Shown here piece after piece: positions 1 through 14,470 of a stretch of 64,000 nucleotides of DNA. Position 1 is the stretch's first letter; each line of letters opens with the position of its first letter. The notes under the pieces were generated by a model. It was not told the DNA's origin and searched no databases. It saw only the letters and a list, made by a program, of their open reading frames with translations. This stretch comes from Parcubacteria group bacterium Gr01-1014_31 (GTDB lineage Bacteria; Patescibacteriota; Patescibacteriia; Buchananbacterales; GWA2-38-13). Location of the stretch: assembly GCA_007376135.1 (NCBI GenBank), contig VMFR01000001.1, positions 9,259 to 73,258 of the forward strand. Direction: 5' to 3'. Position numbers and translations under genes: made by a program.

Positions 1-26
1 GTGAGCTGCGGGTAAATTACGATGAT

Positions 27-482
27 GTGCAGAACTCCATGAATATCATGGGGCAGTACGACCCTGACTACGGCACGATCAAGCTCCCGCTCACGCCCGA
101 GCTGCAGCAGCGGTACATCGCGATCGGCAGCCGGATCGCGTGCGAATACTGCTGCGGCGCGAAGATGATCGTCTTTCCCAACGGCAAGGCGGCCTGCGGC
201 TGCGCCCACTCGCAGGCAATGCGCGGTCTGATCGTCTACCTGTTGACCAAGCATCCCGCTGAATTCAGCGATGACCGTATCCTGCAGGAATTGGCGCGGT
301 GGAAAGCGCGTTTCTTCCCCAAGCAGATGATCGCCAAGGTCGCAGATCAGCGCGCGTCGGGCCAGTACACGCCTGATGTGGCGGCCCTTCTCTTGAACCA
401 GCCGACCGGGGGGTCGCGCAGCACTGCCGCACCGCTGCCATCCAGCCTGCAAAATCTGCCGAACATGGTCGGCGGTTGCTAA
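27..482 (+). CDS. Cys-rich protein (CxxCC...CGC) with C-terminal tail APLPSSLQNLPNMVGGC; possibly 5'-partial (frame open to window edge)
   Basis: ORF track; GTG at 27 or ATG at 39/48; frame has no stop back to nt 3; shares its last ~18 codons with the next ORF. Confidence 0.45.
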   Translation: MQNSMNIMGQYDPDYGTIKLPLTPELQQRYIAIGSRIACEYCCGAKMIVFPNGKAACGCAHSQAMRGLIVYLLTKHPAEFSDDRILQELARWKARFFPKQMIAKVADQRASGQYTPDVAALLLNQPTGGSRSTAAPLPSSLQNLPNMVGGC

Positions 483-533
483 TACCGTGCCGCGCCCAGC
501 AGATTCATCCTTCATTCTTCAATCCCTACTCGT

Positions 534-812
534 ATGGAAAATTGCACGCACCACGACCATAGCCATACTGTTCCGCACGCGGCGAGTGCTCCCGCCGCGC
601 CCGCATCAGAAACGCGCCGGCTTACCATCGCGCTGGTCGCCGTCACGGCGTTCCTCGGCATCCAAACCGTGCAGCTGGTTTCGCTGCGCCGCAGCCTGGC
701 GGCCGCACCGTCCGCTGCTGCTCCGGTCGCGGCGGCCGCGGCTGCCCCACAGGGTGCCGCTCCGCTGCCGTCCAGCCTGCAAAATCTGCCGAACATGGTC
801 GGCGGCTGCTAG
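534..812 (+). CDS. small membrane protein: His-rich N-terminus (CTHHDHSH), one TM helix, Ala/Pro linker, same C-terminal tail PLPSSLQNLPNMVGGC
   Basis: ORF track; ATG at 534; C-terminus encoded by a near-identical ~55-nt repeat of 422-482. Confidence 0.4.
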   Translation: MENCTHHDHSHTVPHAASAPAAPASETRRLTIALVAVTAFLGIQTVQLVSLRRSLAAAPSAAAPVAAAAAAPQGAAPLPSSLQNLPNMVGGC

Positions 813-815
813 GGT

Positions 816-1637
816 ATGCCGCGTTTCATGCGACCGACGTTCGCCGTTGCGATAGTGGCGGTGGCTGTTGCGGCGCTCAACGTCGCGGGCACCGCGCAGC
901 TATTCGGGCAGGTCAAATCCTCGCCAACTCCCGTGCCGCCTCCGCGTTTACAGGTGACCGTGGTCACCGATGCCGCCTGCGCCGAGTGCGCCTCGCTTGA
1001 ACCAGTGGTTGCCCAACTGGCGAAGTTCAATATTGTCCTGGAGCGGGCAACGTTTGAACGCAACAGCACGGAGGGGGCAGCCTTGCTGACGCGGTACGGC
1101 ATCGTTACCGTACCGACGTTGGTGGTGAGCGGCGATGTGGACGCCCTACCGGAACTGGCATCGTTTTGGCAGAAGCTGGGGCGGCGCGCGGCGGACGCCG
1201 TCATTCTTGATCCGCCCATTCCGCCCTACCGCGACGTGCAGAGCGGACAGATCCGCGGCCGGGTGGCCGTGACCCTGGTGGGCGATGCCGCTTGCACCAC
1301 CTGCTACGACGCGAATGAGCACCTGACCATTCTGGCACGCTTCGGCATCAAGGATGAAAACCCGCGCCGGGTGGACATCCGTTCCACGGACGGCCAAACA
1401 TTGCGCCGTGATTACGGCATTACCATGGTCCCGACGTTCGTGCTCACCGGCGAGGTTGGCGTTTACGAAGGGCTGTCGAACATTTGGGTACAAGTGGGTA
1501 CCACCGAAAAGGATGGCGCCTACGTTTTCCGGCAGGGGGTAGCGAGCATGGGCACGTACCGTGATCTGGCGACGGGCAAAATTATTTTGCCCACCCCGAC
1601 TCCCACACCCTCGCCGGTCCAAGGAGTCCAGCCATGA
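816..1637 (+). CDS. membrane-anchored protein-disulfide oxidoreductase-like protein with two thioredoxin-fold units (CAEC...VPT; CTTC...VPT)
   Basis: N-terminal hydrophobic anchor; two CxxC motifs each followed ~40 aa later by a cis-Pro-like VPT(L/F)V motif; starts 3 nt after previous stop. Confidence 0.6.
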   Translation: MPRFMRPTFAVAIVAVAVAALNVAGTAQLFGQVKSSPTPVPPPRLQVTVVTDAACAECASLEPVVAQLAKFNIVLERATFERNSTEGAALLTRYGIVTVPTLVVSGDVDALPELASFWQKLGRRAADAVILDPPIPPYRDVQSGQIRGRVAVTLVGDAACTTCYDANEHLTILARFGIKDENPRRVDIRSTDGQTLRRDYGITMVPTFVLTGEVGVYEGLSNIWVQVGTTEKDGAYVFRQGVASMGTYRDLATGKIILPTPTPTPSPVQGVQP

Positions 1638-2566
1638 ACGCCAATTCCGTCCGGGGACTGGCGAGGTCGCCCTGGTCGGCCGGGGTGGCAGGGATGCTTG
1701 GCATGGCCGGGCTGTACGCAACGATCGTTACCCTCCTGAGCCGGTCCGCGGGGCATACATGGGAGCAGTTCCTGCTCTACCGCTGGTGGATGCTGGCGAT
1801 GTTCCTCGCGTTTGGCATCCAGGTTGGTATCGTTCGGCTGCTGGCCCTGCGTCGTCACAACGCGATTCGCCAGGCGGCGGTGGCCGGCGGTACCGGTTCG
1901 GTGGCCATGGCGGCATGCTGCGCGCACCACGCCCTCGACTTTCTGCCGTTCATCGGGGGAACCTTGGTGGCGGGATTTGTCGTGCGCGCCCAGGCGCCGC
2001 TGCTGGCGGTGGGCGTGGCGTCGAACCTCGCCGGGATAGCGGTACTGTTGGGTCGGCTGTGGGGGGTTCCGTGGCGGCGATGGTTGGCGGTCCGCCGTTC
2101 TCGCACCGGTGGTCTTCGATCGCTGGCGTCCTTGGCGTACGCCGGCGGCGGTGCGTTGGCGGTCGTTATTGCCGCCGCGAGTTTCGGATTGTTGGGAATC
2201 AGCGCGGGGCCAGTGGAAAGCCCGACAGCACGACTCGCGGACATCCAGCGGCCGACGCGAAACGATGCGCAAGCCTCCATCGAGGTGACCGTCAGCCCGC
2301 TGCAGCTGGACCAACTCGGCGTCAGGTTTGCCGTCGGTCTCGAAACCCACACGGTCGAGCTGGACTACGATTTCGCGGCCCTCAGCAGTCTGACCGTCGA
2401 CCGTCGCACCTATGCCGCGCAGCGCTGGGAAGGCGGGCGCGGCGGGCATCACTTGTCCGGCATCTTGGTGTTCCCGCCGTTGCCCCCGCAGGCGCGCACC
2501 GTGGTACTGACCATGAACGGCGTCGGCGGCGTGGTCCGAAAATTCGACTGGTCGGTCACGCCGTAA
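1634..2566 (+). CDS. polytopic membrane protein with vicinal CC-HH motif (AMAACCAHH) in a TM helix plus ~120-aa C-terminal soluble domain
   Basis: ATGA start/stop overlap with upstream gene (translational coupling); 4-5 predicted TM segments; no family recognised. Confidence 0.5.
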   Translation: MNANSVRGLARSPWSAGVAGMLGMAGLYATIVTLLSRSAGHTWEQFLLYRWWMLAMFLAFGIQVGIVRLLALRRHNAIRQAAVAGGTGSVAMAACCAHHALDFLPFIGGTLVAGFVVRAQAPLLAVGVASNLAGIAVLLGRLWGVPWRRWLAVRRSRTGGLRSLASLAYAGGGALAVVIAAASFGLLGISAGPVESPTARLADIQRPTRNDAQASIEVTVSPLQLDQLGVRFAVGLETHTVELDYDFAALSSLTVDRRTYAAQRWEGGRGGHHLSGILVFPPLPPQARTVVLTMNGVGGVVRKFDWSVTP

Positions 2567-2639
2567 CGTGAGTTCACAAGCGGCGGGCAGGTGCTATACT
2601 GAAGCAACCTTCCCGCCGCTTTGCGGTTTTCTCTTAGTT

Positions 2640-4049
2640 ATGCGCCGTATTCTCATCGTCAATCCGAATCTCTACTCATCGCGCGCCACCGTGATGCGCG
2701 GGCGGCACCGGCCGCCGCTGGACTTGGCCTACATTGCCGCTCTCCTGCGCAACGATTTTGAAGTGCGGCTCGTGGACGCGCGCGTCGACAATCTTGATGT
2801 GTGCCAGATGTACGCGGAGGTGGCGGCCTATTCTCCCGAGGTGCTCATTACGACGACCACGCCCGTGGACCGCTGGGAGTGCCCGCAGTCCTATTTGGAG
2901 TCATTCTTCAGCTGGCTTGGCGATGTTGCCAACCTGCCCACCAAGCCCGTGATCATCGTCACGGGCACGCACGGCACCACGCAGCCCGACTGGCTGCTGC
3001 GCCGTTGCCCGTCCATCGATTTCTTGGTGCGCGGCGAACCTGAACGGACGTGTGAGGCGTTGGTGCGCGCAATTGCGGCCGGCGGCCATCCGTCCGTCAT
3101 CGCCGGAGTGTCGTACCGCCAGGAGGAAAAGATCCTGCACAATCAGGCAGCACCGCGCATTCTGGACCTGGACGCCCTGCCCTTGCCGGCCTACGACCTG
3201 CTGCCGATGGGCAAGTACCGCTACACGTTCGGCGACATCCCGCAACCGTTCTCCATCGTGCTGGCCACCCGCGGGTGCCCGTACCGCTGCACCTTCTGCT
3301 GCCGGGTCATGATGGAGAACGCCTACGTTACGCGCAAACCCCAGCAGGTGTACGATGAATTGAAGTACCTGCGCGAGCGGTTCGGCGTGCGCGGGATTTT
3401 TTTCCAGGACTGGGAGTTCACCATCAACAAGTTTTTCGTCAATGCGCTGATGGACCTGCTGCTCGCCAAGCCGTTGGGCATCACCTGGGGTTGTAACGCG
3501 CGCGCCAATGATTTCCAACAACCCCAACTGTTCGAGAAGATGCAGCGGGCCGGCTTGGTGCGGGTGAACATCGGCTTTGAGTCCGGTTCTCCCGAGGTCC
3601 TGGAGGCGGTCAACAAGAAGATCACGGTCGACGACCTGGCGCGGGCCATAGAAGTGACCCGGCGGCTGAAGCTGCACTTGGGAATGTACGCGCTGCTCAA
3701 CGCGCCCGGGGAAACGGCAAAAACCATCCGCGAAACCATGGCGTTCCTCAAGCGCCAGGGGATCAGTTCGATGAATTTCAACCTGGTCGTGCCGTACTTC
3801 GGCACCGCGGTGCACGAGCAGCTGCGCGAGCAGCTCGGCCCCGAAGCGGCCGAGCACCTGACCTGGGATACCATCGAAGAGTACGCCGGCCGCACCCGCA
3901 CGCAGTTGCCGCCTTGGCTGGCGCGCCTCTACCAGCGTCACACGAAATACCGCCTCTCCAGCGGGCCGATCTACTGGCTGCGCCCTGCGGTCTGGGCCGA
4001 GGTCGGGAGAAAGGTCGTGGGCCGCATGCATCCGCATGAGGGAAAGTAG
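2640..4049 (+). CDS. B12-binding-domain radical SAM protein
   Basis: N-terminal Rossmann-like B12-binding region (RILIVNPN...LDLAYIAALLR); CxxxCxxC cluster motif GCPYRCTFC; start moved to internal ATG 2640. Confidence 0.8.
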   Translation: MRRILIVNPNLYSSRATVMRGRHRPPLDLAYIAALLRNDFEVRLVDARVDNLDVCQMYAEVAAYSPEVLITTTTPVDRWECPQSYLESFFSWLGDVANLPTKPVIIVTGTHGTTQPDWLLRRCPSIDFLVRGEPERTCEALVRAIAAGGHPSVIAGVSYRQEEKILHNQAAPRILDLDALPLPAYDLLPMGKYRYTFGDIPQPFSIVLATRGCPYRCTFCCRVMMENAYVTRKPQQVYDELKYLRERFGVRGIFFQDWEFTINKFFVNALMDLLLAKPLGITWGCNARANDFQQPQLFEKMQRAGLVRVNIGFESGSPEVLEAVNKKITVDDLARAIEVTRRLKLHLGMYALLNAPGETAKTIRETMAFLKRQGISSMNFNLVVPYFGTAVHEQLREQLGPEAAEHLTWDTIEEYAGRTRTQLPPWLARLYQRHTKYRLSSGPIYWLRPAVWAEVGRKVVGRMHPHEGK

Positions 4050-4058
4050 CGTAGCGTT

Positions 4059-4086
4059 CAGCCGCCCTTTGCCGGGCGGTTTTTGT
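4059..4086 (+). terminator. rho-independent terminator after radical SAM gene
   Basis: stem CCGCCC / GGGCGG with 6-nt loop followed by TTTTT. Confidence 0.6.
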
Positions 4087-4106
4087 TTGGGCGTTCCGTC
4101 GGTTTG

Positions 4107-4115
4107 TGGTATAAT
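4107..4115 (+). promoter_or_regulatory. extended -10 element TGgTATAAT upstream of receiver gene
   Basis: TGnTATAAT match ~37 nt upstream of ATG 4152; upstream TTGTTT hexamer is spaced 21 nt (non-canonical). Confidence 0.4.
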
Positions 4116-4151
4116 TATGCCCTAGTATCAACGCGCGCGGGCGCGATTCTT

Positions 4152-4562
4152 ATGGCAACCAAGAGCACGAAGAAGCCGACAACCACGGCGGCGGGCGGCA
4201 AGGCCGTTCTCATCATCGAGGATGATGAATTTTTGGCAAAAATGATGGCCCGGATGCTGGAAGAGGCCGGGCTGCGGTGTACGCTGGCGGGGAACGGCAA
4301 AGAAGGCTTGCGGAAAGCGCAGGCGGATGTCCCGCAGCTCATCATCCTGGACATCATCCTGCCTGATTTGGACGGGTTTGCGATTTTGAGCAAATTGAAA
4401 GCCGCCGCCGCTACCAAAGCGGTTCCGGTCATCATCATTTCCAACCTTGGCCAGGAGGAAGACGTGCAGCAGGGTCTGCGGTTGGGCGCCAAGGACTACA
4501 TCGTAAAGAGCGACCTCAGCCTGGATGCGGTGGTGGCTAAGGTGATGAAGCAACTGAAATAA
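4152..4562 (+). CDS. stand-alone response-regulator receiver domain (CheY-like), likely pilus-associated
   Basis: phospho-acceptor Asp in IILDIILPDLDG, DYIVKSD motif; no output domain; immediately upstream of pilB/pilC. Confidence 0.8.
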   Translation: MATKSTKKPTTTAAGGKAVLIIEDDEFLAKMMARMLEEAGLRCTLAGNGKEGLRKAQADVPQLIILDIILPDLDGFAILSKLKAAAATKAVPVIIISNLGQEEDVQQGLRLGAKDYIVKSDLSLDAVVAKVMKQLK

Positions 4563-4565
4563 CAT

Positions 4566-4654
4566 TTGACTGTTGACCTTTGACCATTGACCGCGTTGAT
4601 GTTGGTCAAATTTCGCCGCTTGTCAAATGTTGCCGGTCAATGGTTAATGGTCAG
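4566..4654. promoter_or_regulatory. array of TTGAC(C) heptads (four tandem 7-bp units) followed by inverted GGTCAA copies, upstream of pilB
   Basis: TTGACTG TTGACCT TTGACCA TTGACCG at 4566-4593, then GGTCAA/GTCAA at 4604, 4622, 4635, 4642(GGTTAA), 4649(GGTCAG). Confidence 0.45.
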
Positions 4655-4655
4655 T

Positions 4656-6350
4656 ATGCACGTATCGGATGAACAACTGAAAGAGGCGCTGGTTTCGCGG
4701 CAGCTGTTGCCCGCGAGCCAGGTGAACGCTGCGTTCGCGAAGGCGGAGGCGCAGCATCTGTCTTTGCGCGAGGTGCTGTTGAACGATGATCTGATCGCCG
4801 ACGAGCACGTGGGCCGACTGATCGCCGACCTGCTGGGGGTCCCGTTCATTAACCTCCGCAAAGTGCAAATACCGGAGGCGGTGCTGCGGTTGATTCCGGA
4901 AGTGGTGGCCAAGAGCCGCCAGGTGATCGCGGTCAAACGCGATCGCGAGGGGTTGACGGTCGCGATGGCGGATCCCGACGACATGGAGGCGGTGGCGCTG
5001 GTGCAGAAGGCGACCGGCGAGCTGGTCACGCCGGCCTTGGCCACCCCGCGCGACCTCGGCGGCGCGTTGTCGCGGTACCGGAAGGGCTTGCAAGAGGATT
5101 TTTCCGCGCTGCTGACGGCGGCCGCGTCGGAAGCGGAAGCTGCCACCAAAGAGCAGGCAGTGGAACAGGCGGAAGCGACGGTAGTGCGCATTGTCGAACA
5201 GCTGCTCGCGTACGCCTATGAGAATAAAGCCTCCGACCTGCATCTGGAGCCGCAGCGCGACGCTCTGGTGGTGCGTTTCCGCATCGATGGCGTCCTGCAC
5301 GAGGTGGTCGCTCTGCCGAAAGCCATCGAACCGCAGATCGTCTCCCGCATCAAGGTATTGTCCAAATTGCGCACCGACGAGCATGCGGCGGCCCAAGACG
5401 GTAAATTTCGGTTCAGCGTTCCGGAAGAGCAGGTGGATGTCCGCGTTTCCATCCTGCCGGTGACCGCCGGTGAAAAAGTGGTCTTGCGGCTGTTATCGTC
5501 CAAGCAGCGGGAATTTTCCCTCGAGGATCTTGGCTTTGGGGCGGGCGATCTGAAAAAAGTGAAACTGGCGTTCAACAAACCGTACGGCATGATCCTGTCC
5601 ACCGGCCCGACGGGTTGTGGCAAGACCACGACGCTCTACGCCATCCTGCAGATCCTCAACAGCCGCGAGATCAATATTTCCACGATCGAAGACCCGGTCG
5701 AGTATGAGATCGCGGGCGTGAATCAGATCCAGGTCAACGCCAAGACGAATCTGACGTTCGCGGCCGGCCTGCGCTCCATCCTGCGCCAGGACCCCGACGT
5801 CATCATGGTCGGGGAGATCCGCGACGAGGAGGCGGCCGGCATCGCGGTTAACGCCGCCATGACCGGCCATCTGGTGCTCTCGACGCTCCACACCAATGAT
5901 GCCGCGACTTCGCTGCCGCGGCTGTTGGACATGCAGGTGGAACCGTTCCTCATCTCCAGCACTGTGAATGTCATTGTGGCGCAGCGTCTGGTGCGGCGCA
6001 TCTGTAGCCAGTGTTTGGTGAGCTACCAGGCCAAGCGCAAGGAGCTTGGGGCGACGCTTTCGCCGGCGCTGGTCACCCGCCATTTCGGAAACCGCGCGTC
6101 GGTGCGGCTGTACAAGGGCAAGGGGTGCCAGGTGTGCGGCGGTACCGGGTACCACGGCCGGGTCGGCATTTTCGAAGTTCTGGAGGTGACGGAGGCGGTA
6201 CGGCGGCTGATCATGGAGCGCGCCAACGCGGATATCATCAAGGCGGAAGCGGTCAAGGAGGGGATGACGACGATGTTGGATGATGGCCTGGCGAAAGCGG
6301 TGCAGGGGGCGACGACCATTGAGGAAGTCCTGCGGGCGACCCGCGAGTGA
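4656..6350 (+). CDS. pilB: type IV pilus assembly ATPase PilB (GspE family)
   Basis: GspII_E N-domain, Walker A GPTGCGKTTT, His/Asp boxes, tetracysteine CSQC...CQVC; start chosen at ATG 4656 (track start 4587 lies in the repeat array). Confidence 0.9.
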   Translation: MHVSDEQLKEALVSRQLLPASQVNAAFAKAEAQHLSLREVLLNDDLIADEHVGRLIADLLGVPFINLRKVQIPEAVLRLIPEVVAKSRQVIAVKRDREGLTVAMADPDDMEAVALVQKATGELVTPALATPRDLGGALSRYRKGLQEDFSALLTAAASEAEAATKEQAVEQAEATVVRIVEQLLAYAYENKASDLHLEPQRDALVVRFRIDGVLHEVVALPKAIEPQIVSRIKVLSKLRTDEHAAAQDGKFRFSVPEEQVDVRVSILPVTAGEKVVLRLLSSKQREFSLEDLGFGAGDLKKVKLAFNKPYGMILSTGPTGCGKTTTLYAILQILNSREINISTIEDPVEYEIAGVNQIQVNAKTNLTFAAGLRSILRQDPDVIMVGEIRDEEAAGIAVNAAMTGHLVLSTLHTNDAATSLPRLLDMQVEPFLISSTVNVIVAQRLVRRICSQCLVSYQAKRKELGATLSPALVTRHFGNRASVRLYKGKGCQVCGGTGYHGRVGIFEVLEVTEAVRRLIMERANADIIKAEAVKEGMTTMLDDGLAKAVQGATTIEEVLRATRE

Positions 6351-6385
6351 TCTTCCGGAGAAAATCAAGGTTAAAAACACAAGGC

Positions 6386-7594
6386 ATGCAATTCGCGTAT
6401 TCGGCAGCCACGGCGGACGGGAAGATGACCCGCGGCGTTGTGGCCGCAGCCAACCAGCGGGCCGCGATCGCGCTGCTTGAACGGCAGCAGCTGGTTGTCG
6501 TGAAGCTGGAGCGCCGTCGTGACGGCAAGGCTCAGGCGCTCTACCGCGTGCCGCTGTTGCAGCGGATGCTTTTGGCGCAGCACCTGTCGACGCTCCTAAG
6601 AGCCGGCGTCAGCTTGCTGGAAGGCCTGCGAGTGGTGCAGGAAGAGGCCCGCTCACGGCGATTACGCAAGCTGTTGGAACGCGTGCGGGTCAAAGTATCG
6701 TCCGGCACCACCTTTGCCGCCGCCCTCGAATCCCAGGGCGGGGCCTTTGACTCCCTATTTACCAGTTTGGTGCGCGTCGGCGAGTCCTCCGGCACGCTGG
6801 AGGAGAATCTTTCCTACCTCGCGGATGAATTGGAGAAACGGATGGCGCTCCACACCAAAGTGCGCTCGGCGTTGACGTATCCGGCGGTGGTCGTCGGCGT
6901 GACGGGCGTGCTGGGCGCGGTCCTCGCGTTCTTCGTATTGCCCAAGATTGTTCCGCTGTTCACCTCGCTCAAGGTGAAACTCCCGCTCTCGACGGAGATC
7001 CTGTTGAGGGTCGCCGGGTTCTCCCGCGACCACGGTATGCTCTCCCTGGCGCTCATCGCCGGCGCCATCATTGCTTTCCGTTTGCTGACCTTGCGGGGAC
7101 CGTTGCGGCGGCAATGGCATTGGTTCTTGCTGCGTTTGCCGGTGGTCGGCCGCATTACGCGAAGTTTGAACCTGGCCAACGCCTGCCGGACCCTGGGGAC
7201 GCTGTTGAAGAGCGGCGTGCCGTTGCTGGAGGCGCTTGATATCACCGCCGGCACACTGGGGAATACGGCGTACCGCGAGGAATTTTCCGCTCTGCGGGAT
7301 GCGGCCGGCACCGGCACCAGCCTCGCTGCAAGCATGGCGCAGCCCTCGCGGCGGAAGCTGTTCCCGCCCTTGACGCTGTCGCTGGTCCGGGTGGGCGAAT
7401 CCAGCGGGAAACTGGACGAGAGTTTGCTCTACCTGAACCGTTTCTACGAACGCGAGGTGGATAATTTAATGAAAGATCTGACGGTCATCCTGGAGCCGAT
7501 GCTGTTGGTGTTCATCGGACTGGTGGTGGCGTTCGTCGCCGGGGCCATCATTACGCCTATCTACCAGATCTCCGGCAGTCTGCGAGTGAGATGA
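6386..7594 (+). CDS. pilC: type IV pilus inner-membrane platform protein PilC (GspF family)
   Basis: two GspF repeats, 3 TM regions; start at ATG 6386 preceded by AAGG. Confidence 0.85.
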   Translation: MQFAYSAATADGKMTRGVVAAANQRAAIALLERQQLVVVKLERRRDGKAQALYRVPLLQRMLLAQHLSTLLRAGVSLLEGLRVVQEEARSRRLRKLLERVRVKVSSGTTFAAALESQGGAFDSLFTSLVRVGESSGTLEENLSYLADELEKRMALHTKVRSALTYPAVVVGVTGVLGAVLAFFVLPKIVPLFTSLKVKLPLSTEILLRVAGFSRDHGMLSLALIAGAIIAFRLLTLRGPLRRQWHWFLLRLPVVGRITRSLNLANACRTLGTLLKSGVPLLEALDITAGTLGNTAYREEFSALRDAAGTGTSLAASMAQPSRRKLFPPLTLSLVRVGESSGKLDESLLYLNRFYEREVDNLMKDLTVILEPMLLVFIGLVVAFVAGAIITPIYQISGSLRVR

Positions 7595-7597
7595 TCT

Positions 7598-9646
7598 ATG
7601 AGGTTTCACTGGCCGCGGCGCAGCGTGGTGGGCATCGACCTTTCTGACCGGTCGATCGAGGCGTTGCAGCTGAAGCGGTCGCTGGGGAAGCCCGCACTGG
7701 CTGCCTACAGCCGGGTGCAGTTGCCGCCGGGTGTCGTTGAGGACGGGCGGATCCTACAGCCGGCCGCGCTGGTGGAACGGGTGCGCCAGCTGCTGCAGAA
7801 AGCGCGTCCGGAGCCCATTAAGGAGCATCTGTGTGTTATCGCCCTGCCGGAATCCCAGGTCTATTCGCATGTGTTTTCGTTGCCCGCGGCGTTCCAGGCC
7901 GAACAGGTGCGGCGGGCAATCCTCCTGGAGGCGGAGCACTTCATGCCCATCCCACTCAGGGAAAGTTATTTGGATTTTCGTCCTATCGGCGTCCGCGGCG
8001 AGTATCAGGAGGTGGCGTTTGCGGCGACCCGGCGCGGCCTGGTGCATACGTACCTTGAGGTTTTCAAGTCCGCCGGGCTCCAGCCTATCGCCTTCGAGCC
8101 GGAATCCGTCAGTCTGGGCCGGTCGCTGGTGCGCCGGACCTTAGGCGACGGGTCGGCGGCTACTCTTATTGCGGATGTGGGTATGCGTACGACCAATGTC
8201 CACCTCGTGCGCCAGGGTGCGGTCATCGGCAGTTTGACGATTCCGCGGGCCGGCGGTCACTTCACTGAGGCGGTCGCCGCGGCCATGAAGATTTCCCCGG
8301 AGGAGGCCGAGACCCGCAAACTGCAGGTCGGGTTCGACGAGCGGCGGGGCGATGCCGTCCTGGTGTCCGCGCTCTCGTCGGCAGCGGTGCCGATCATCGC
8401 CGAGGTCAAGCGGTTCGTGGCGTACGCGGTCGAACATCGCGGCGTAACCGTACGCCAGGTGGTGTTGGCCGGCGGGTCCGCCTTGCTGCCGGGGTTCCCG
8501 GAATTTTTGTCGGCCCAGTTGAGTTTACCCGTCAGCGTCGGGGAGCCGTTGGCGCGCCTTTGGCAGGGCCGCGTGAAGCTGCCCGAACGCCAGGGCGTGC
8601 TGTATGGCAATGTCATCGGGCTGGCGCTGCGCGGGCTGCACCGCGACCCGGTTGCGGCGGGACCAAATCTGCTGATTCAGGCGCAGGACCGCATCCGCAG
8701 CGAACAACTGCAGCATTTTTTGACCGTACCGAAATTCGATCGGCGGCTGTGGGGAATGGTCGCCGCACTGGTATGCTCCCTGCTGGTGCTGGGGGGGCTG
8801 TTGTGGTACCGATCGGCAACGCCGGCGCCAAACCCGCGCTACGTGGTGGAATTTTCTCCGTTGGACTGGGCCAAGAGTAAGGCGCCGCAGACGACGGAGC
8901 TGGCTATTTCCTTTGCGTCCGCGGAGGCTGTTCCCGCCAATGCGCTTCCCGCGCGATTCCTGGAAGGAGTATTCACCGCCACGGACGTTTTCGCGGCTAC
9001 GGCGTCCGCCACCGTTGCCACCACGGACACGCTGGTGCGATTGGTGAACACGACCGATCGGGACCAGCCACTGGTGTCCAATACCCGGCTGGAGGCAAAT
9101 GACGGAACCACCCTGCGTCTTACCTCCGGGGTCATCGTGCCCGCGGACGGTACTTTGACCATTGCCGTTCCCCTCCCGCCGGACGGTGGAGTGAGCGGGC
9201 GTTTGCGACTGCCGGGGTTGTCGGTTGATGCCCAGCGGTCCATCTACGCCGAAGTCATCCTCCCCGCCGCCGTCATCGGGGCAGGCGATGTCGCCGCGGC
9301 CCGCGAGCGGCTGTTTGCCTCAGCGCGGCAGTTGGCAACCGATGCCTTCGTTGTTCAACAGGAAGCTGAGGAGTACCTGCTGCCGATATTCCCCCCGCTT
9401 GAGGGGGAGGCGCTGACGACGTCGTTGCCAGTCGGAGCATTCGCCGTCGAATTTTCGGCCACGCTGCGCCAACCCTTCGGAGGCATCGTGGTGTTCAAGA
9501 ATGACCTGGTATCGGCGATCACCGCCGCGTTTGGCCCCCTGGAGCAGCCGCTCCAGTCCGTCAGTTTCACGCTTGGCAAGCTGGATTTGGCGGAGCGCCG
9601 GATTTCTGTTATAATAACCACAGCCAGCCCGCCTGTGGAAAAGTAA
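7598..9646 (+). CDS. PilM-like actin-fold ATPase fused to PilN-like TM segment and a ~280-aa C-terminal extracytoplasmic domain
   Basis: N-terminal VVGIDLSDRSIEAL... PilM/FtsA-like fold; single TM (LWGMVAALVCSLLVLGGLLWY) near residue 390. Confidence 0.7.
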   Translation: MRFHWPRRSVVGIDLSDRSIEALQLKRSLGKPALAAYSRVQLPPGVVEDGRILQPAALVERVRQLLQKARPEPIKEHLCVIALPESQVYSHVFSLPAAFQAEQVRRAILLEAEHFMPIPLRESYLDFRPIGVRGEYQEVAFAATRRGLVHTYLEVFKSAGLQPIAFEPESVSLGRSLVRRTLGDGSAATLIADVGMRTTNVHLVRQGAVIGSLTIPRAGGHFTEAVAAAMKISPEEAETRKLQVGFDERRGDAVLVSALSSAAVPIIAEVKRFVAYAVEHRGVTVRQVVLAGGSALLPGFPEFLSAQLSLPVSVGEPLARLWQGRVKLPERQGVLYGNVIGLALRGLHRDPVAAGPNLLIQAQDRIRSEQLQHFLTVPKFDRRLWGMVAALVCSLLVLGGLLWYRSATPAPNPRYVVEFSPLDWAKSKAPQTTELAISFASAEAVPANALPARFLEGVFTATDVFAATASATVATTDTLVRLVNTTDRDQPLVSNTRLEANDGTTLRLTSGVIVPADGTLTIAVPLPPDGGVSGRLRLPGLSVDAQRSIYAEVILPAAVIGAGDVAAARERLFASARQLATDAFVVQQEAEEYLLPIFPPLEGEALTTSLPVGAFAVEFSATLRQPFGGIVVFKNDLVSAITAAFGPLEQPLQSVSFTLGKLDLAERRISVIITTASPPVEK

Positions 9647-11024: not shown

Positions 11025-11636
11025 ATGCCATACACACTGCCCAAATTGGCCTACGCTCTTGATGCGCTGGAGCCGCATCTTGACGCGCGGACGATGGAGA
11101 TCCACCACGGCAAACACCACCAGGCGTACGTCGACAATCTCAATAAGGCCCTGGAGTCCTATCCCGAACTCCAGCGGTTGACCCCGGAAGAGCTGGTGGC
11201 GCAGCTTTCTACGGTGCCGGAAGCCGCGCGCACCGCCGTCCGCAACAATGCCGGGGGACACCTCAACCACAGTTGGTACTGGGAGTGGATGGCGCCGAAA
11301 GCCGCAGGAAAGCCTGACGGAAAATTGGCGAAAGCGTTCGAACAAGAGTTTGGCGGGTTCTCCGGGTTCCAGGAGCAGTTTACCAAGGCCGGCATGACCC
11401 GTTTCGGCAGCGGTTGGGCGTGGCTCGTCATCAAAGAGGGAAAACTTTCGGTTCTCTCGACGGCCAACCAGGACAATCCGTTGACCGACGGCTTTACCCC
11501 GCTGCTGGGCTGCGACGTGTGGGAGCACGCCTACTATTTGAAGTATCAGAACCGCCGGGTTGATTATTTAAAGGCGTGGTGGAGCGTGGTGAACTGGGGA
11601 AACGTCGAAACGCGCTTCGCGAAAACGCAGCGGTAA
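11025..11636 (+). CDS. sodA: superoxide dismutase, Mn-type signature
   Basis: [20 protein letters not shown] (GG = Mn-type), [19 protein letters not shown]; close to E. coli SodA. Confidence 0.9.
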
Positions 11637-11916: not shown

Positions 11917-12480
11917 ATGCGCCGGAATTATTCCCTTCTTTTTTTCGCCGCGGCATTCGTTACCTTGGCGAGTGTTGGATGCACGCGCACGGCATTGACG
12001 CCGAACGTTGCGCCGCCTGATGCATCCGCACCCGCGGTGCCGTCCAACGGGGAACGCGTTCCCGAAGCGGCGGGCAGCCCGCTCGAGCAGCCCCAGCGGG
12101 CCACCGCGGATACGCCCGTGCCTCCCGCGGTATCCAGCTATCGGCCGTTCACGAAAGATGCCTACGAACAGGCCAAGGCCGACGGACGGCCGATCCTGCT
12201 GTATTTTTACGCCAACTGGTGCCCGTTGTGCGCCGACCAGGAACCGCAGGTGGCCGAACTTTTCCGCAGTCCGGCGATGGCCGATTGGGGGGTGGCGGCG
12301 TTCCGCGTCAACTACAACGACAGCGACAGTGACAGTGATGAGCGGGACTTGGCGGCGGAACTCGGCGTGAACTACCAGCATACCTTTTTTACATTCGACC
12401 GGAGCGGCAAGCAGGTGTGGCGGGCGACCGGCACGCAAACGCCCGCGCAGCTGCGTTCTCGTCTGGAAGCGATCCGGTAA
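11917..12480 (+). CDS. secreted/lipoprotein thioredoxin-like protein (TlpA-like, WCPLC)
   Basis: N-terminal signal ...LASVGC; thioredoxin fold ILLYFYANWCPLC. Confidence 0.7.
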   Translation: MRRNYSLLFFAAAFVTLASVGCTRTALTPNVAPPDASAPAVPSNGERVPEAAGSPLEQPQRATADTPVPPAVSSYRPFTKDAYEQAKADGRPILLYFYANWCPLCADQEPQVAELFRSPAMADWGVAAFRVNYNDSDSDSDERDLAAELGVNYQHTFFTFDRSGKQVWRATGTQTPAQLRSRLEAIR

Positions 12481-12494
12481 CGGCTTGGTTTGGT

Positions 12495-13331
12495 ATGGAG
12501 ACGCTCACTCTGCCATCGTTGCTCGCGCTTTCCGCATTTTCCGGTGCGTTGACCATCGCCGCGCCCTGTATCCTATCGCTGTTGCCCGTGATGCTGGGTT
12601 CAGCCTTGGGGCAGCACCGTCTGCGGCCGCTCTTCATCGTGCTGGGGCTGGTGTCCAGCTTCACCGCCTTCGGCCTGGCGTTCGCGACCTTCACGCGATT
12701 TTTCGGCTTGAACCGAGTGCAATTCCGCCAGATCGCCGTCTGGCTGATCTTTTTTTTCGGGTTGGCGCTGCTGTTCCCGCGCCAGTATGAGCGGATCTCC
12801 GCCGGACTGAAATCCTTGCGTTCCCGCCTTATGCTCCGAATGCGCGGCGGCAATCTTCCCGTGCCGACTTTGCACCGGCCAAGGGCCGGTTTCCGCGGCG
12901 CGTTCCTGCTCGGCGCCTCCATGGGTTTGGCCTGGGTGCCGTGTGCCGGACCGGTGCTGGGTGTGATCTTCACGATCGCTGCTTCGCAGGAAGCCTACGG
13001 AACTGCGGCGCTGCTGTTTGCAGCATACGCAGTCGGTGCCGGCGTGCCGTTGTTGGTGATCGGGTACGGCGGCAATTGGATCGCGGCCAAGACCAGATTT
13101 CTGGCCGGGAAGACCGAACTGGTGCGCCGCATCGCCGGGGCGCTGCTGGCAACCATGGGCCTGCTGATGATCACCGAATTGGACCGCCGGCTGGAAATAT
13201 CCGCTTTCGGCCTGTTCCCGAATACGGTAGGTATCGAAGAGCGCCTGCTGGAAGAGCAGATGGATGAGTTGCCCATGGGGGAACTCGTGGACCCGGGCCA
13301 GAAAATGCCGGTGCTGCCGCGTCAGCCATGA
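12495..13331 (+). CDS. ccdA: cytochrome c-type biogenesis / thiol-disulfide transporter CcdA (DsbD family)
   Basis: two conserved TM Cys motifs APCILSLLP and VPCAGPVL; 6 TM; start at ATG 12495. Confidence 0.75.
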   Translation: METLTLPSLLALSAFSGALTIAAPCILSLLPVMLGSALGQHRLRPLFIVLGLVSSFTAFGLAFATFTRFFGLNRVQFRQIAVWLIFFFGLALLFPRQYERISAGLKSLRSRLMLRMRGGNLPVPTLHRPRAGFRGAFLLGASMGLAWVPCAGPVLGVIFTIAASQEAYGTAALLFAAYAVGAGVPLLVIGYGGNWIAAKTRFLAGKTELVRRIAGALLATMGLLMITELDRRLEISAFGLFPNTVGIEERLLEEQMDELPMGELVDPGQKMPVLPRQP

Positions 13332-14470
13332 AGTCTATGCATCTTCGCGGGTGGTTGAACATCCTGATTAGTATCGCGGTCATCGTCGCGGTCGTGACGG
13401 TCGGCTACCGGCTGATCTATGCGTCCAATCCGCTCAAGCAAGCGGGAGCATTGTTCTCCAGCCTTTTTGACCGTTCGTCCATGCTCCATTCCAGCTTGCG
13501 GCGCGAAGCCGTGCCCGCCCCCGAGTTGGCCGGTATTCAGCAGTGGTTCAACACCGCCGGCAATACGCCCTTGCGCATCTCCGACCTGCGCGGAAAGGTC
13601 GTCATCGTTGATTTTTGGACCTATAGCTGCATCAACTGCATCCGGACCATGCCGTATATCACGGCCTGGGACAAAAAATACCGCGATCGCGGTTTGGTGA
13701 TTATTGGCGTGCATACTCCGGAATTCGAATTCGAAAAGGTCCCCGCGAACGTCGCGGGGAAGATCAAGGAGTACGGCATTGAATACCCGGTGGCGCTGGA
13801 TAGCCGCTACGATACCTGGAACGCCTACGGTAACCAATTCTGGCCGGCCAAGTACTTCATCGACCATGAGGGTAACATCGTCTGGCGCCATTTCGGGGAA
13901 GGCGCGTACGAGGAATCGGAAGCAAAGATCCAGGAGCTGTTGCGCAATGCCGGTTTGCTCGATGATGTCCCGCCGACGGCAGCCGTCAGCCCGAATGTCG
14001 ATTTTTCCCTGATCAAGACGCCGGAACTGTATTTCGGCTATCGCCGGCTGCTGTCGCCGTCCCAGCGGCGGCATTTCGCGCCTGACCAGCTTCGCCCGGG
14101 CGAGGTCAACCGGTACGCCGCGCCGCCAACGTTACAGGAGAACGAATTTACCCTGGTCGGTGATTGGCTGATGGAGGATGAGTACGCCGAGCTGAGATCG
14201 GCGCAGGGGGCGATCCTTATCCGTTACTTCGCCACCAAGGCGAATCTGGTGCTGGAGGCGACCCCTGCTGCCAGGGCGAGCGTGCTCGTGGATGGCGAGC
14301 CGCTCCGGGGCGCGGGTCGCGGGAGCGATGTGCGCACAGACGGAACCGTGGCCATCGGCGAACCAAGACTGTATAATCTGACCGTTGCCGGGGACGACCT
14401 GGGCTGGCATACTCTGGAGGTGCGGTTCGACCGGCCCGGCATCCGTGCGTTCTCGTTCACCTTCGGCTGA
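13328..14470 (+). CDS. membrane-anchored TlpA/ResA-like thiol-disulfide oxidoreductase (redoxin, DipZ C-terminal-like) with ~140-aa C-terminal extension
   Basis: ATGA overlap with ccdA stop; TM anchor; VVIVDFWTYSCINC...YFIDHEGNIV. Confidence 0.75.
   Translation: MKSMHLRGWLNILISIAVIVAVVTVGYRLIYASNPLKQAGALFSSLFDRSSMLHSSLRREAVPAPELAGIQQWFNTAGNTPLRISDLRGKVVIVDFWTYSCINCIRTMPYITAWDKKYRDRGLVIIGVHTPEFEFEKVPANVAGKIKEYGIEYPVALDSRYDTWNAYGNQFWPAKYFIDHEGNIVWRHFGEGAYEESEAKIQELLRNAGLLDDVPPTAAVSPNVDFSLIKTPELYFGYRRLLSPSQRRHFAPDQLRPGEVNRYAAPPTLQENEFTLVGDWLMEDEYAELRSAQGAILIRYFATKANLVLEATPAARASVLVDGEPLRGAGRGSDVRTDGTVAIGEPRLYNLTVAGDDLGWHTLEVRFDRPGIRAFSFTFG

Follow-up and report, generated by a model that had tools for sequence, protein, structure and literature searches.

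The DNA analysed here (the window) is a stretch of 64,000 nucleotides from Parcubacteria group bacterium Gr01-1014_31 (contig VMFR01000001.1, positions 9,259 to 73,258 of the forward strand). At its left end lie two neighbouring genes, here called A and B, whose otherwise unrelated products end in the same peptide of 17 residues with the C-terminus Gly-Gly-Cys (GGC); this peptide is referred to as the tail. Positions are numbered within the 64-kb window. Gene A is truncated by the left edge of the window, and residues of protein A are numbered as in P0001, a 99%-identical full-length relative of 252 amino acids. The features of the two genes, all on the + strand, are as follows.

3..482, + strand: 3' part of gene A, residues 94-252 of 252 amino acids; the 5' end lies left of the window
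141..209, + strand: invariant cysteine centre of A, C-E-Y-C-C-G (141-158) and C-G-C-A-H (195-209), codons read directly
315..332, + strand: F-P-K-Q-M-I motif of A at the N-terminus of helix 199-212, candidate tail-docking surface from co-variation
425..481, + strand: repeat copy 1, from repeat and shuffle searches
429..479, + strand: tail of A, last 17 codons, APLPSSLQNLPNMVGGC; stop codon 480-482
534..812, + strand: gene B, 92 amino acids, with His/Cys-rich N-terminus, one transmembrane helix with QxxQ, Ala-rich linker and tail
621..686, + strand: transmembrane helix of B, approximately residues 30-51, from alignments A2 and A3, the AlphaFold2 helix and hydropathy
755..811, + strand: repeat copy 2, from repeat and shuffle searches
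759..809, + strand: tail of B, last 17 codons, APLPSSLQNLPNMVGGC; stop codon 810-812

The tails are encoded by a direct repeat of 57 nucleotides with 95% identity, within which a core of 48 nucleotides (432-479 and 762-809) contains two mismatches. This core was matched twice in the whole window and not once in 100 shuffles. Each copy is in frame and provides the last 17 codons and the first two stop-codon bases of an open reading frame (ORF) on the + strand; the peptide common to both C-termini is APLPSSLQNLPNMVGGC. The copies differ by three synonymous codon changes (GCA/GCT, CCA/CCG and GGT/GGC), the stop codons are TAA and TAG, respectively, and the similarity ends after the first two bases of the stop. 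A sequence-only reading of the window had described a near-identical repeat forming the last codons of two otherwise unrelated ORFs, with three silent or stop differences; repeat searches and codon reading bear out all of this, with three synonymous changes in addition to the different stops. A dispersed or non-coding repeat, which the same reading had named as a counter-explanation, can be ruled out, since the only two copies in the window are both in frame. The motif was absent from all other ORFs of the window in a six-frame scan, and an RNA element was rejected, since no Rfam match was obtained for window 1-3000 at E ≤ 1.

Relatives of A were sought by a scan of one genome per GTDB species, which yielded at least 493 of them, from bacteria of the Candidate Phyla Radiation (CPR) and from DPANN archaea; 80 loci were retained. 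These include, from CPR/Patescibacteria, Magasanikbacteria, Buchananbacteria, Uhrbacteria, Parcubacteria, Saccharibacteria and Peribacteria, and from DPANN, Micrarchaeota, Woesearchaeota, Aenigmatarchaeota, Diapherotrites and Nanoarchaeota. The GGC end was found in 118 of the 120 best homologues of A, preceded by residues of the form PLPSx(I/L)xx(L/A)PxMV. For B, a profile search gave 531 clusters at 50% identity, all of 52-137 amino acids; the top 150 matches were all B-like, and 155 of the 156 listed members ended in GGC. The per-position consensus common to both families is x-P-[LV]-P-S-x-[IL]-x-[ND]-L-P-x-M-V-G-G-C, its last three positions being fixed by the selection of sequences. Conservation of the amino acids with divergence of the nucleotides, which had been proposed as a check on the tail, was found in both families, and orthologues without it, held beforehand to count against a function, are rare exceptions.

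Exactly two GGC-ended ORFs were present in 70 of 85 loci, namely A and the small protein directly downstream, B; in several Micrarchaeota A is followed by two B-like small proteins. A third tail-bearing family was found neither in the window nor among ORFs of at least 40 amino acids in 86 loci with about 1.2 Mb of flanks (whole proteomes were not scanned); only four GGC-ended ORFs, judged spurious, turned up among these ORFs. A divergent subgroup of A without an adjacent B (9602-10483 in L077, 4336-5166 in L082 and 9767-10477 in L081; Anaerolineae, Hydrothermarchaeota, Veblenbacteria) keeps MVGxC in the forms MVGDC, MVGRC and MVGGC, with FPKQT replacing FPKQM, which suggests that the arm in cis, on A itself, is older than a B protein encoded on its own. 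The tail is ancient and specific to the A and B families, and it is almost certainly a selected functional module common to two unrelated proteins. In the searchable literature no relevant match was obtained for the motif MVGGC, and nothing pertinent for CPR/DPANN in combination with copper and thioredoxin. Many contigs with the CPR-type gene island described below bear the title "uncultured Gammaproteobacteria bacterium" (L010, L011, L013, L017, L020, L025 and others); these titles are probably placeholders or wrong taxonomic labels.

The near-identity of the DNA in the window is due to lineage-specific gene conversion atop deep purifying selection. In genomes beyond the window's own lineage, 19-42 of 51 nucleotides agreed between the 17 tail codons of A and those of B, and in most genomes 19-35, while the peptide core was kept; tails which are alike in peptide and unlike in nucleotides indicate that selection acts on the protein. 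A match of 48-49 of 51 nucleotides was confined to the window and its close relatives L006 and L007. There the synonymous sites change together, the Ala codons being GCA/GCT, GCT/GCT and GCC/GCC and the Pro codons CCA/CCG, CCG/CCG and CCA/CCA in the three genomes, and in this lineage the identity begins and ends sharply at the borders of the module; both are signatures of gene conversion. At positions with the same residue, codons of A and B were identical in 44.8% of cases within genomes, against 36.4 ± 2.4% in GC-matched pairs between genomes. This modest excess suggests that conversion is occasional and does not itself maintain the motif; pervasive conversion was rejected as the source of the similarity, since the effect is strong in the lineage of the window and in few others. 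A repeat without function of its own, be it a recent duplication, a conversion tract or a dispersed element, would fit the 48-49 nucleotides common to the copies and the co-changing synonymous sites, and it can practically be dismissed as a full explanation in view of the two copies only, both in frame at stop codons, a peptide kept across CPR and DPANN with divergent codons, and no Rfam, plasmid or phage match. The plasmid and phage collections were searched by tblastn with A, and on the ground of this result an origin from a mobile element was also rejected.

In protein A, a short N-terminus and a single hydrophobic helix are followed by a low-complexity linker, the domain (about 150 residues), another linker and the tail. 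Its AlphaFold2 model is helical with a hairpin insert; the predicted local distance difference test (pLDDT) score exceeds 90 for approximately residues 80-225, falls below 50 in the linker 227-236 and is about 77 in the tail. The cysteine centre comprises C140, C143, C144, C158, C160 and H162, and the invariant columns of alignment A1 (36 sequences) include C140, C143, C144, C158, G159, C160, A161, H162, V249, G250, G251 and C252. The domain thus contains five invariant cysteines, an odd number, and the tail contributes a sixth. No known family was found for A or B in Pfam or NCBIfam, and all sources name both "hypothetical protein"; a profile search against PDB sequences gave no match, nor did Foldseek against PDB. 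The only structural match for the model is the thiol oxidoreductase CcmH, whose periplasmic three-helix-bundle fold the predicted domain appears to have. The sequence-only reading had taken A for a soluble Cys-rich protein, of which the Cys-rich part holds and the soluble part does not, full-length A having an N-terminal membrane anchor. A would appear to be a membrane-anchored, presumably extracytoplasmic Cys-rich protein with a CcmH-like helical domain.

Protein B contains little besides an anchor in the membrane and a linker leading to the tail; some members also have a cytoplasmic segment rich in His and Cys. The earlier description of B as a His-rich protein with a single transmembrane segment was correct. 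In the window it begins with MENCTHHDHSH. Q44 of the helix is invariant and Q47 conserved (alignments A2 and A3), and the AlphaFold2 model is a single helix at residues 24-57, in which the tail, with B modelled alone, has a pLDDT of 55-60. With A helical and B a single helix, neither protein is predicted to be ubiquitin-like, in agreement with the sequence-only reading. Four or more His/Cys residues precede the helix in 35 of 227 B proteins, and eight archaeal B proteins carry YEQMMxRMHP outside the helix. Some B proteins have in front of the helix a cytoplasmic C2H2-like zinc-finger motif (F-x-C-x2-C-x3-F-x5-L-x2-H-x3-5-H), which is unusual in bacteria; this motif or long His-rich tracts were seen in P0141, P0147, P0199, P0220, P0272, L042 6808-7143 and L049 10592-10960. 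The archaeal motif, in the general form Y-E-x-M-M-x-x-M-H-P, stands upstream of the tail in B or B' paralogues of L055, L057, L062, L064, L065, L072, L073 and L084 and resembles Met/His copper-binding motifs of periplasmic copper proteins.

Within genomes, the tails of A and B vary in concert. At position -5 the pairs (A/B) numbered 61 for M/M, 8 for Q/Q, 1 for M/Q and 0 for Q/M; at position -4 they numbered 67 for V/V and one each for A/A, Q/Q and V/Q. The tail also co-varies with FPKQM, a nearly invariant motif of A where helix 199-212 begins. Q201 of this motif was present in 151 of 166 sequences with M at tail position -5 (M248) and in none of the 14 with Q at this position, where residue 201 is A, P, E or N. 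Judged by nearest-neighbour identity, the 14 stand for no fewer than six independent events, in bacteria as well as archaea. In an analysis of mutual information with average product correction (MIp) and sequence weighting, the strongest partners of tail residues L245, P246 and M248 were K200, Q201 and I203, the pair 248-201 ranking 28 of 13,041 long-range pairs. Co-variation of the tails with each other and with residues 200-203 suggests that A's own domain reads the tail, and the higher pLDDT of the tail in A than in B alone is consistent with an intramolecular docking site. It is fairly probable, then, that the tail docks onto A. In an up-down-up bundle the N-terminus of the third helix (199-203) should lie at the same end as that of the first, just after C158-G-C160, so that a tail bound to 200-203 could bring its terminal Cys to the cysteine centre. 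A screen of neighbour proteins (thioredoxin-fold, DsbD-like, BlaR1-like, BlaI and two membrane proteins) for residues tracking the change from M to Q in the tail gave a result dominated by one bacterial clade and carried little information.

Genes A and B belong to a recurrent island, in which neighbours were counted in the 43 loci flanked on either side by 5 kb or more. Just upstream, a BlaI-like repressor and an M56/BlaR1-like membrane peptidase were found in 33 of these; further frequent neighbours were a DsbD-like membrane protein (32 loci), a membrane-anchored protein with two or three thioredoxin folds (31), membrane proteins with a GCPTCG (29) or an ACCxHH motif (27), and a CopA-type P1B ATPase (21). 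Cupredoxin, CsoR and DUF302 also recur, as do DUF1573 proteins in bacteria. The order in the window is A, B and then the two genes below; in close relatives the DsbD-like gene lies upstream of the part which corresponds to the window.

816..1637, + strand: membrane-anchored protein with two thioredoxin folds, CAEC and CTTC; Pfam Thioredoxin_3, internal repeat D3
1634..2566, + strand: polytopic membrane protein with A-C-C-A-H-H in a helix; ORF without a Pfam family

The thioredoxin-fold protein is a likely redox partner of A and B. It has arisen by internal duplication (repeat 954-983 / 1269-1298); archaeal counterparts have three folds (L072 8690-9829), and one bacterial counterpart is fused to a rhodanese domain (L004 9007-10143). 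The A-C-C-x-H-H family also has members at L072 12798-13439 and L023 10252-10722; that of the window possesses an extra C-terminal domain of about 150 amino acids. Of 18 members of the DsbD-like family, 5 matched Pfam DsbD_TM and 13 the related SfLAP; the protein has conserved cysteines in two helices (C214 and C331/C335); its N-terminal domain gave a weak DUF411/CopG-like match below the Pfam cut-off. The island thus contains the elements of a DsbD/CcdA-thioredoxin reducing pathway, i.e., a DsbD_TM-type protein with two conserved Cys and an anchored thioredoxin-fold partner with CxxC. The BlaR1-like protein of bacteria has a Cys-rich C-terminal segment, whereas the archaeal M56 proteins are short and lack it. 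Judged by its gene neighbourhood, the island looks like an envelope thiol-redox island linked to copper or soft-metal stress. The core neighbours common to CPR and DPANN in loci L007-L086, namely the BlaI/BlaR1-like, DsbD-like and thioredoxin-fold proteins, the ACCxHH membrane protein and CopA, imply that the whole A-B island was passed between the two domains of life.

These observations can be combined in a reading of the tail as a docking peptide, (A)PLPSx(I/L)x(N/D)LPxMVGGC-COOH, which presents its terminal thiol to the cysteine centre of A, in cis from A and in trans from B; we consider it about evenly poised between right and wrong. A would display its CcmH-like domain, with the invariant CxxCC, CGC and His, outside the cell. 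Its own tail, following a flexible linker, would fold back on the FPKQMI end of helix 199-212, by which the last Cys, with its free carboxylate behind two glycines, would be placed at the CxxCC/CGC centre; the tail of B could serve as a second, membrane-tethered arm using the same site of A in trans. The arm might then exchange disulfide/reducing equivalents or Cu(I) with the centre of A, either cargo being a tentative proposal. Reducing equivalents could perhaps take the route DsbD-like protein, thioredoxin-fold protein, A and arm, mirroring that from DsbD over CcmG to CcmH. A copper role of A and B is predicted from the neighbourhood (CopA in 21 of 43 loci, cupredoxin, CsoR, the weak DUF411 match) and from the His/Met motifs of B. 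The suggestion in the sequence-only reading that the tail is a conserved modification site finds its closest counterpart here, in so far as the tail co-varies with a surface motif of A.

Going further, A and B could constitute an undescribed carrier system, with the 17-residue GGC-COOH peptide as a mobile covalent or metal carrier; this appears rather doubtful. Cu(I), persulfide or disulfide would be shuttled between the CcmH-like Cys centre and the membrane proteins with Cys pairs, in a stand-alone membrane-anchored analogue of SoxY-type arms, which would have been passed between the domains as one island. The rhodanese fusion in L004 is the only hint of sulfur.

Several points weigh against the docking arm. 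Physical docking, the proximity of the tail to the cysteine centre, the extracytoplasmic location and the cargo are what we infer, the docking from co-variation and pLDDT; the co-variation sample amounts to about 90 effective sequences, with phylogenetic effects partly controlled, and L054, L051 and L086 are exceptions to the concordance of A and B tails. The likeness to CcmH is structural only: hhalign of A with E. coli CcmH gave a probability of 0.3%, and Foldseek and Pfam were empty. The positive-inside bias from which the outside location follows is weak (2.2-2.5 against 1.7-1.8 K+R). Short B forms look like signal peptides with a VQA motif, and B could then be released instead of anchored. 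As to the cargo, no single one is favoured by the data, and the replaceability of Met -5 by Gln weakens a Met-Cys copper site.

Copper would also be central if the tail bound metal on its own, the Cys thiolate and carboxylate, the Gly-Gly amides and the Met thioether capturing Cu(I) or another soft metal without docking, and the two tails being alike through the same bound ion and gene conversion. Such a tail would suit a copper-linked island (CopA, cupredoxin, CsoR, DUF411/CopG-like domain), the His/Cys-rich N-termini of B, the Met/His motifs of archaeal B and the excess of codon identity within genomes (44.8% compared with 36.4 ± 2.4%); yet it leaves the conservation of PLPSxIxxLP and the coupling of 245-248 to 200-203 unexplained, Met -5 has become Gln in at least six lineages, and the nucleotide identity of A and B tails outside few lineages is so low that conversion cannot maintain their similarity. 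We regard it as unlikely. The same coupling to residues 200-203 would stay unexplained if the tail served as a ligand in regulation. In this case the BlaR1-like protease would sense the redox or metal state of the exposed Cys on A or B, remove the BlaI-like repressor and induce the island. The position of both regulatory genes immediately upstream in both domains of life and the Cys-rich segment of the bacterial BlaR1-like protein speak for this idea, which is nevertheless quite improbable, given archaeal M56 proteins without that segment, the absence of the regulator pair from about one quarter of the complete loci, and no co-variation with BlaR1 that stood out.

The sequence-only reading itself had suggested a sorting, cleavage or attachment signal, had likened the GG-C end to GG extensions of sulfur carriers trimmed by JAMM proteases, and had advised looking for a cognate peptidase or transferase nearby in related genomes. 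An enzyme of the sortase, lipid-transferase, peptidase or JAMM type acting on the tail would be in keeping with a motif at the extreme C-terminus, with LPx...GG, which recalls LPXTG, with the lipobox-like (M)VGGC, and with the M56/M48-type peptidase (BlaR1-like) upstream in 33 of 43 loci. The Cys is, however, the last residue of the protein, with neither a hydrophobic segment nor a charged tail after the motif, and no family of sortase, exosortase, Lgt, JAMM or E1-like enzymes recurs in the approximately 1.2 Mb of flanks (whole genomes were not searched). The catalytic site of the M56 family, moreover, is not known to lie on the outer face. A lipobox (L-x-x-C) would follow an N-terminal signal peptide, whereas (M)VGGC is C-terminal and follows a polar linker. 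The motif is common to bacteria and archaea despite their different envelopes, the co-variation of the tail points to A itself as the partner, and neither A nor B has a predicted beta-grasp fold. A signal of this kind is accordingly improbable, and the JAMM-trimmed carrier, with no JAMM or E1-like gene recurring near the tail, was not borne out either. Nor did a B12-binding radical S-adenosylmethionine (SAM) enzyme gene (2568-4049) prove a candidate for a general, RiPP-like tail modifier, since it was seen only in the window and in the 99%-identical L006 and does not figure among the recurrent neighbours of other loci.

Several known systems invite comparison. CcmH, together with CcmG and DsbD/CcdA, forms the thiol-reduction branch of System I cytochrome c maturation. 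By sequence A is not a member of CcmH/NrfF, with no match in Pfam or NCBIfam and none to CcmH in the profile search against PDB sequences; hhalign sets its invariant I-[SA]-C-E-[YF]-C-C on LRCPKC of CcmH, with a third adjacent Cys, in an alignment which is not significant. A differs by extra cysteines (CxxCC and CGCxH) and an extra N-terminal subdomain, there are no ccm or cytochrome c genes nearby (none of the former among the recurrent neighbours in the 43 well-flanked loci), and CcmH has neither a C-terminal Cys arm nor a B-like partner. In function, carrier or shuttle arms with a Cys end come closest. Shuttle tails at the C-terminus are known from thioredoxin reductase (GCUG), mercuric reductase (Cys pair), Erv2 (CGC tail) and HypE (terminal Cys); they are flexible, end in Cys or Sec and move to and fro between a redox or metal centre inside the protein and a partner outside it. 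Each of them belongs to one enzyme, whereas here the tail is found also on a separate minimal membrane protein, seemingly read in trans, and a flavin or nucleotide domain is lacking. Scs and CopG/DUF411 are envelope copper-stress thiol systems. They share with the island a DsbD-like reductase and thioredoxin-fold proteins encoded with copper efflux genes, but Scs has nothing equivalent to A and B, the DUF411 match fails to reach the cut-off, and copper is deduced here from the neighbourhood.

Among C-terminal sorting signals (LPXTG/sortase, PEP-CTERM/exosortase, PGF-CTERM/archaeosortase) the tail has parallels in being a C-terminal motif on unrelated surface proteins and in its LPx element; it differs by its Cys end, by the lack of a transmembrane segment or basic tail after the motif and of a sorting enzyme nearby. 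ThiS, MoaD and CysO are ubiquitin-like sulfur carriers with GG ends, trimmed by JAMM proteases. Gly-Gly with an extra C-terminal residue is common to them and the tail, but not the beta-grasp fold or a neighbouring E1-like or JAMM gene, and the tail is predicted to act outside the cell, without ATP. Similar in local motif, hydrophobic-x-GGC, is SoxY, whose arm is a flexible C-terminal Gly-Gly-Cys peptide that carries pathway intermediates covalently on its Cys, outside the cytoplasm, to several partners (PMC5336275). SoxY ends in GGCGG, the tail in GGC-COOH; moreover, SoxY, a soluble protein of beta-sandwich fold, pairs with SoxZ and is encoded in sox operons. Nothing of this kind was seen here: the proteins gave no Pfam match to SoxY or SoxZ, and the 43 loci contained no sox neighbours. 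Precedents exist for a C-terminal cysteine arm in thiol or metal relays of the envelope, and it is the two-protein arrangement and the distribution in CPR and DPANN that are new; neither SoxY, thioredoxin reductase, mercuric reductase, Erv2 nor HypE issues its arm as a separate minimal membrane protein.

Much of microbial diversity belongs to CPR and DPANN, whose conserved envelope proteins mostly lack an assigned function. In the present case one short motif joins two unannotated families, with a concrete predicted contact between L-P-x-M of the tail and K200/Q201/I203. Should the thiol arm prove true, it would represent a new design of an extracytoplasmic thiol or copper relay, with a shuttle peptide issued also as a separate minimal membrane protein, and it could provide an entry point to the handling of copper or oxidative stress at the cell surface of these organisms. 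The island, present in bacteria and archaea alike, clearly exemplifies sharing across the domains among ultra-small organisms which occur together.

Further Cys-bearing C-termini were seen in two families of neighbour proteins. One, of about 165 amino acids, has a W-C-I-x-K-H-L-L motif, a C-C-x-E ending and no Pfam family, and was present in 16 loci (e.g., L001 13082-13573, L006 410-916, L031 1392-1883); the other is a small two-helix membrane protein ending in K-x-C-H, which recurs close to the island in 17 loci, 12 of them archaeal (e.g., L072 13845-14111, L068 380-604). The radical SAM enzyme mentioned above, directly downstream of the island, had BchE and HpnJ as best NCBIfam matches, far below the cut-off, and is probably unrelated to the tail, which it might still modify in this lineage. 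At 4083-9646 of the window a response-regulator receiver protein precedes genes for a type IV pilus (PilB-like ATPase, PilC-like platform and PilM-like proteins), as is typical of CPR. A conventional second DsbD_TM protein and then a Redoxin/Thioredoxin_10 protein are encoded at 12417-14470, forming a separate envelope reducing pair, adjoined by an Fe/Mn superoxide dismutase at 11025-11636. The G+C content of the window is 61%, which is high for CPR.

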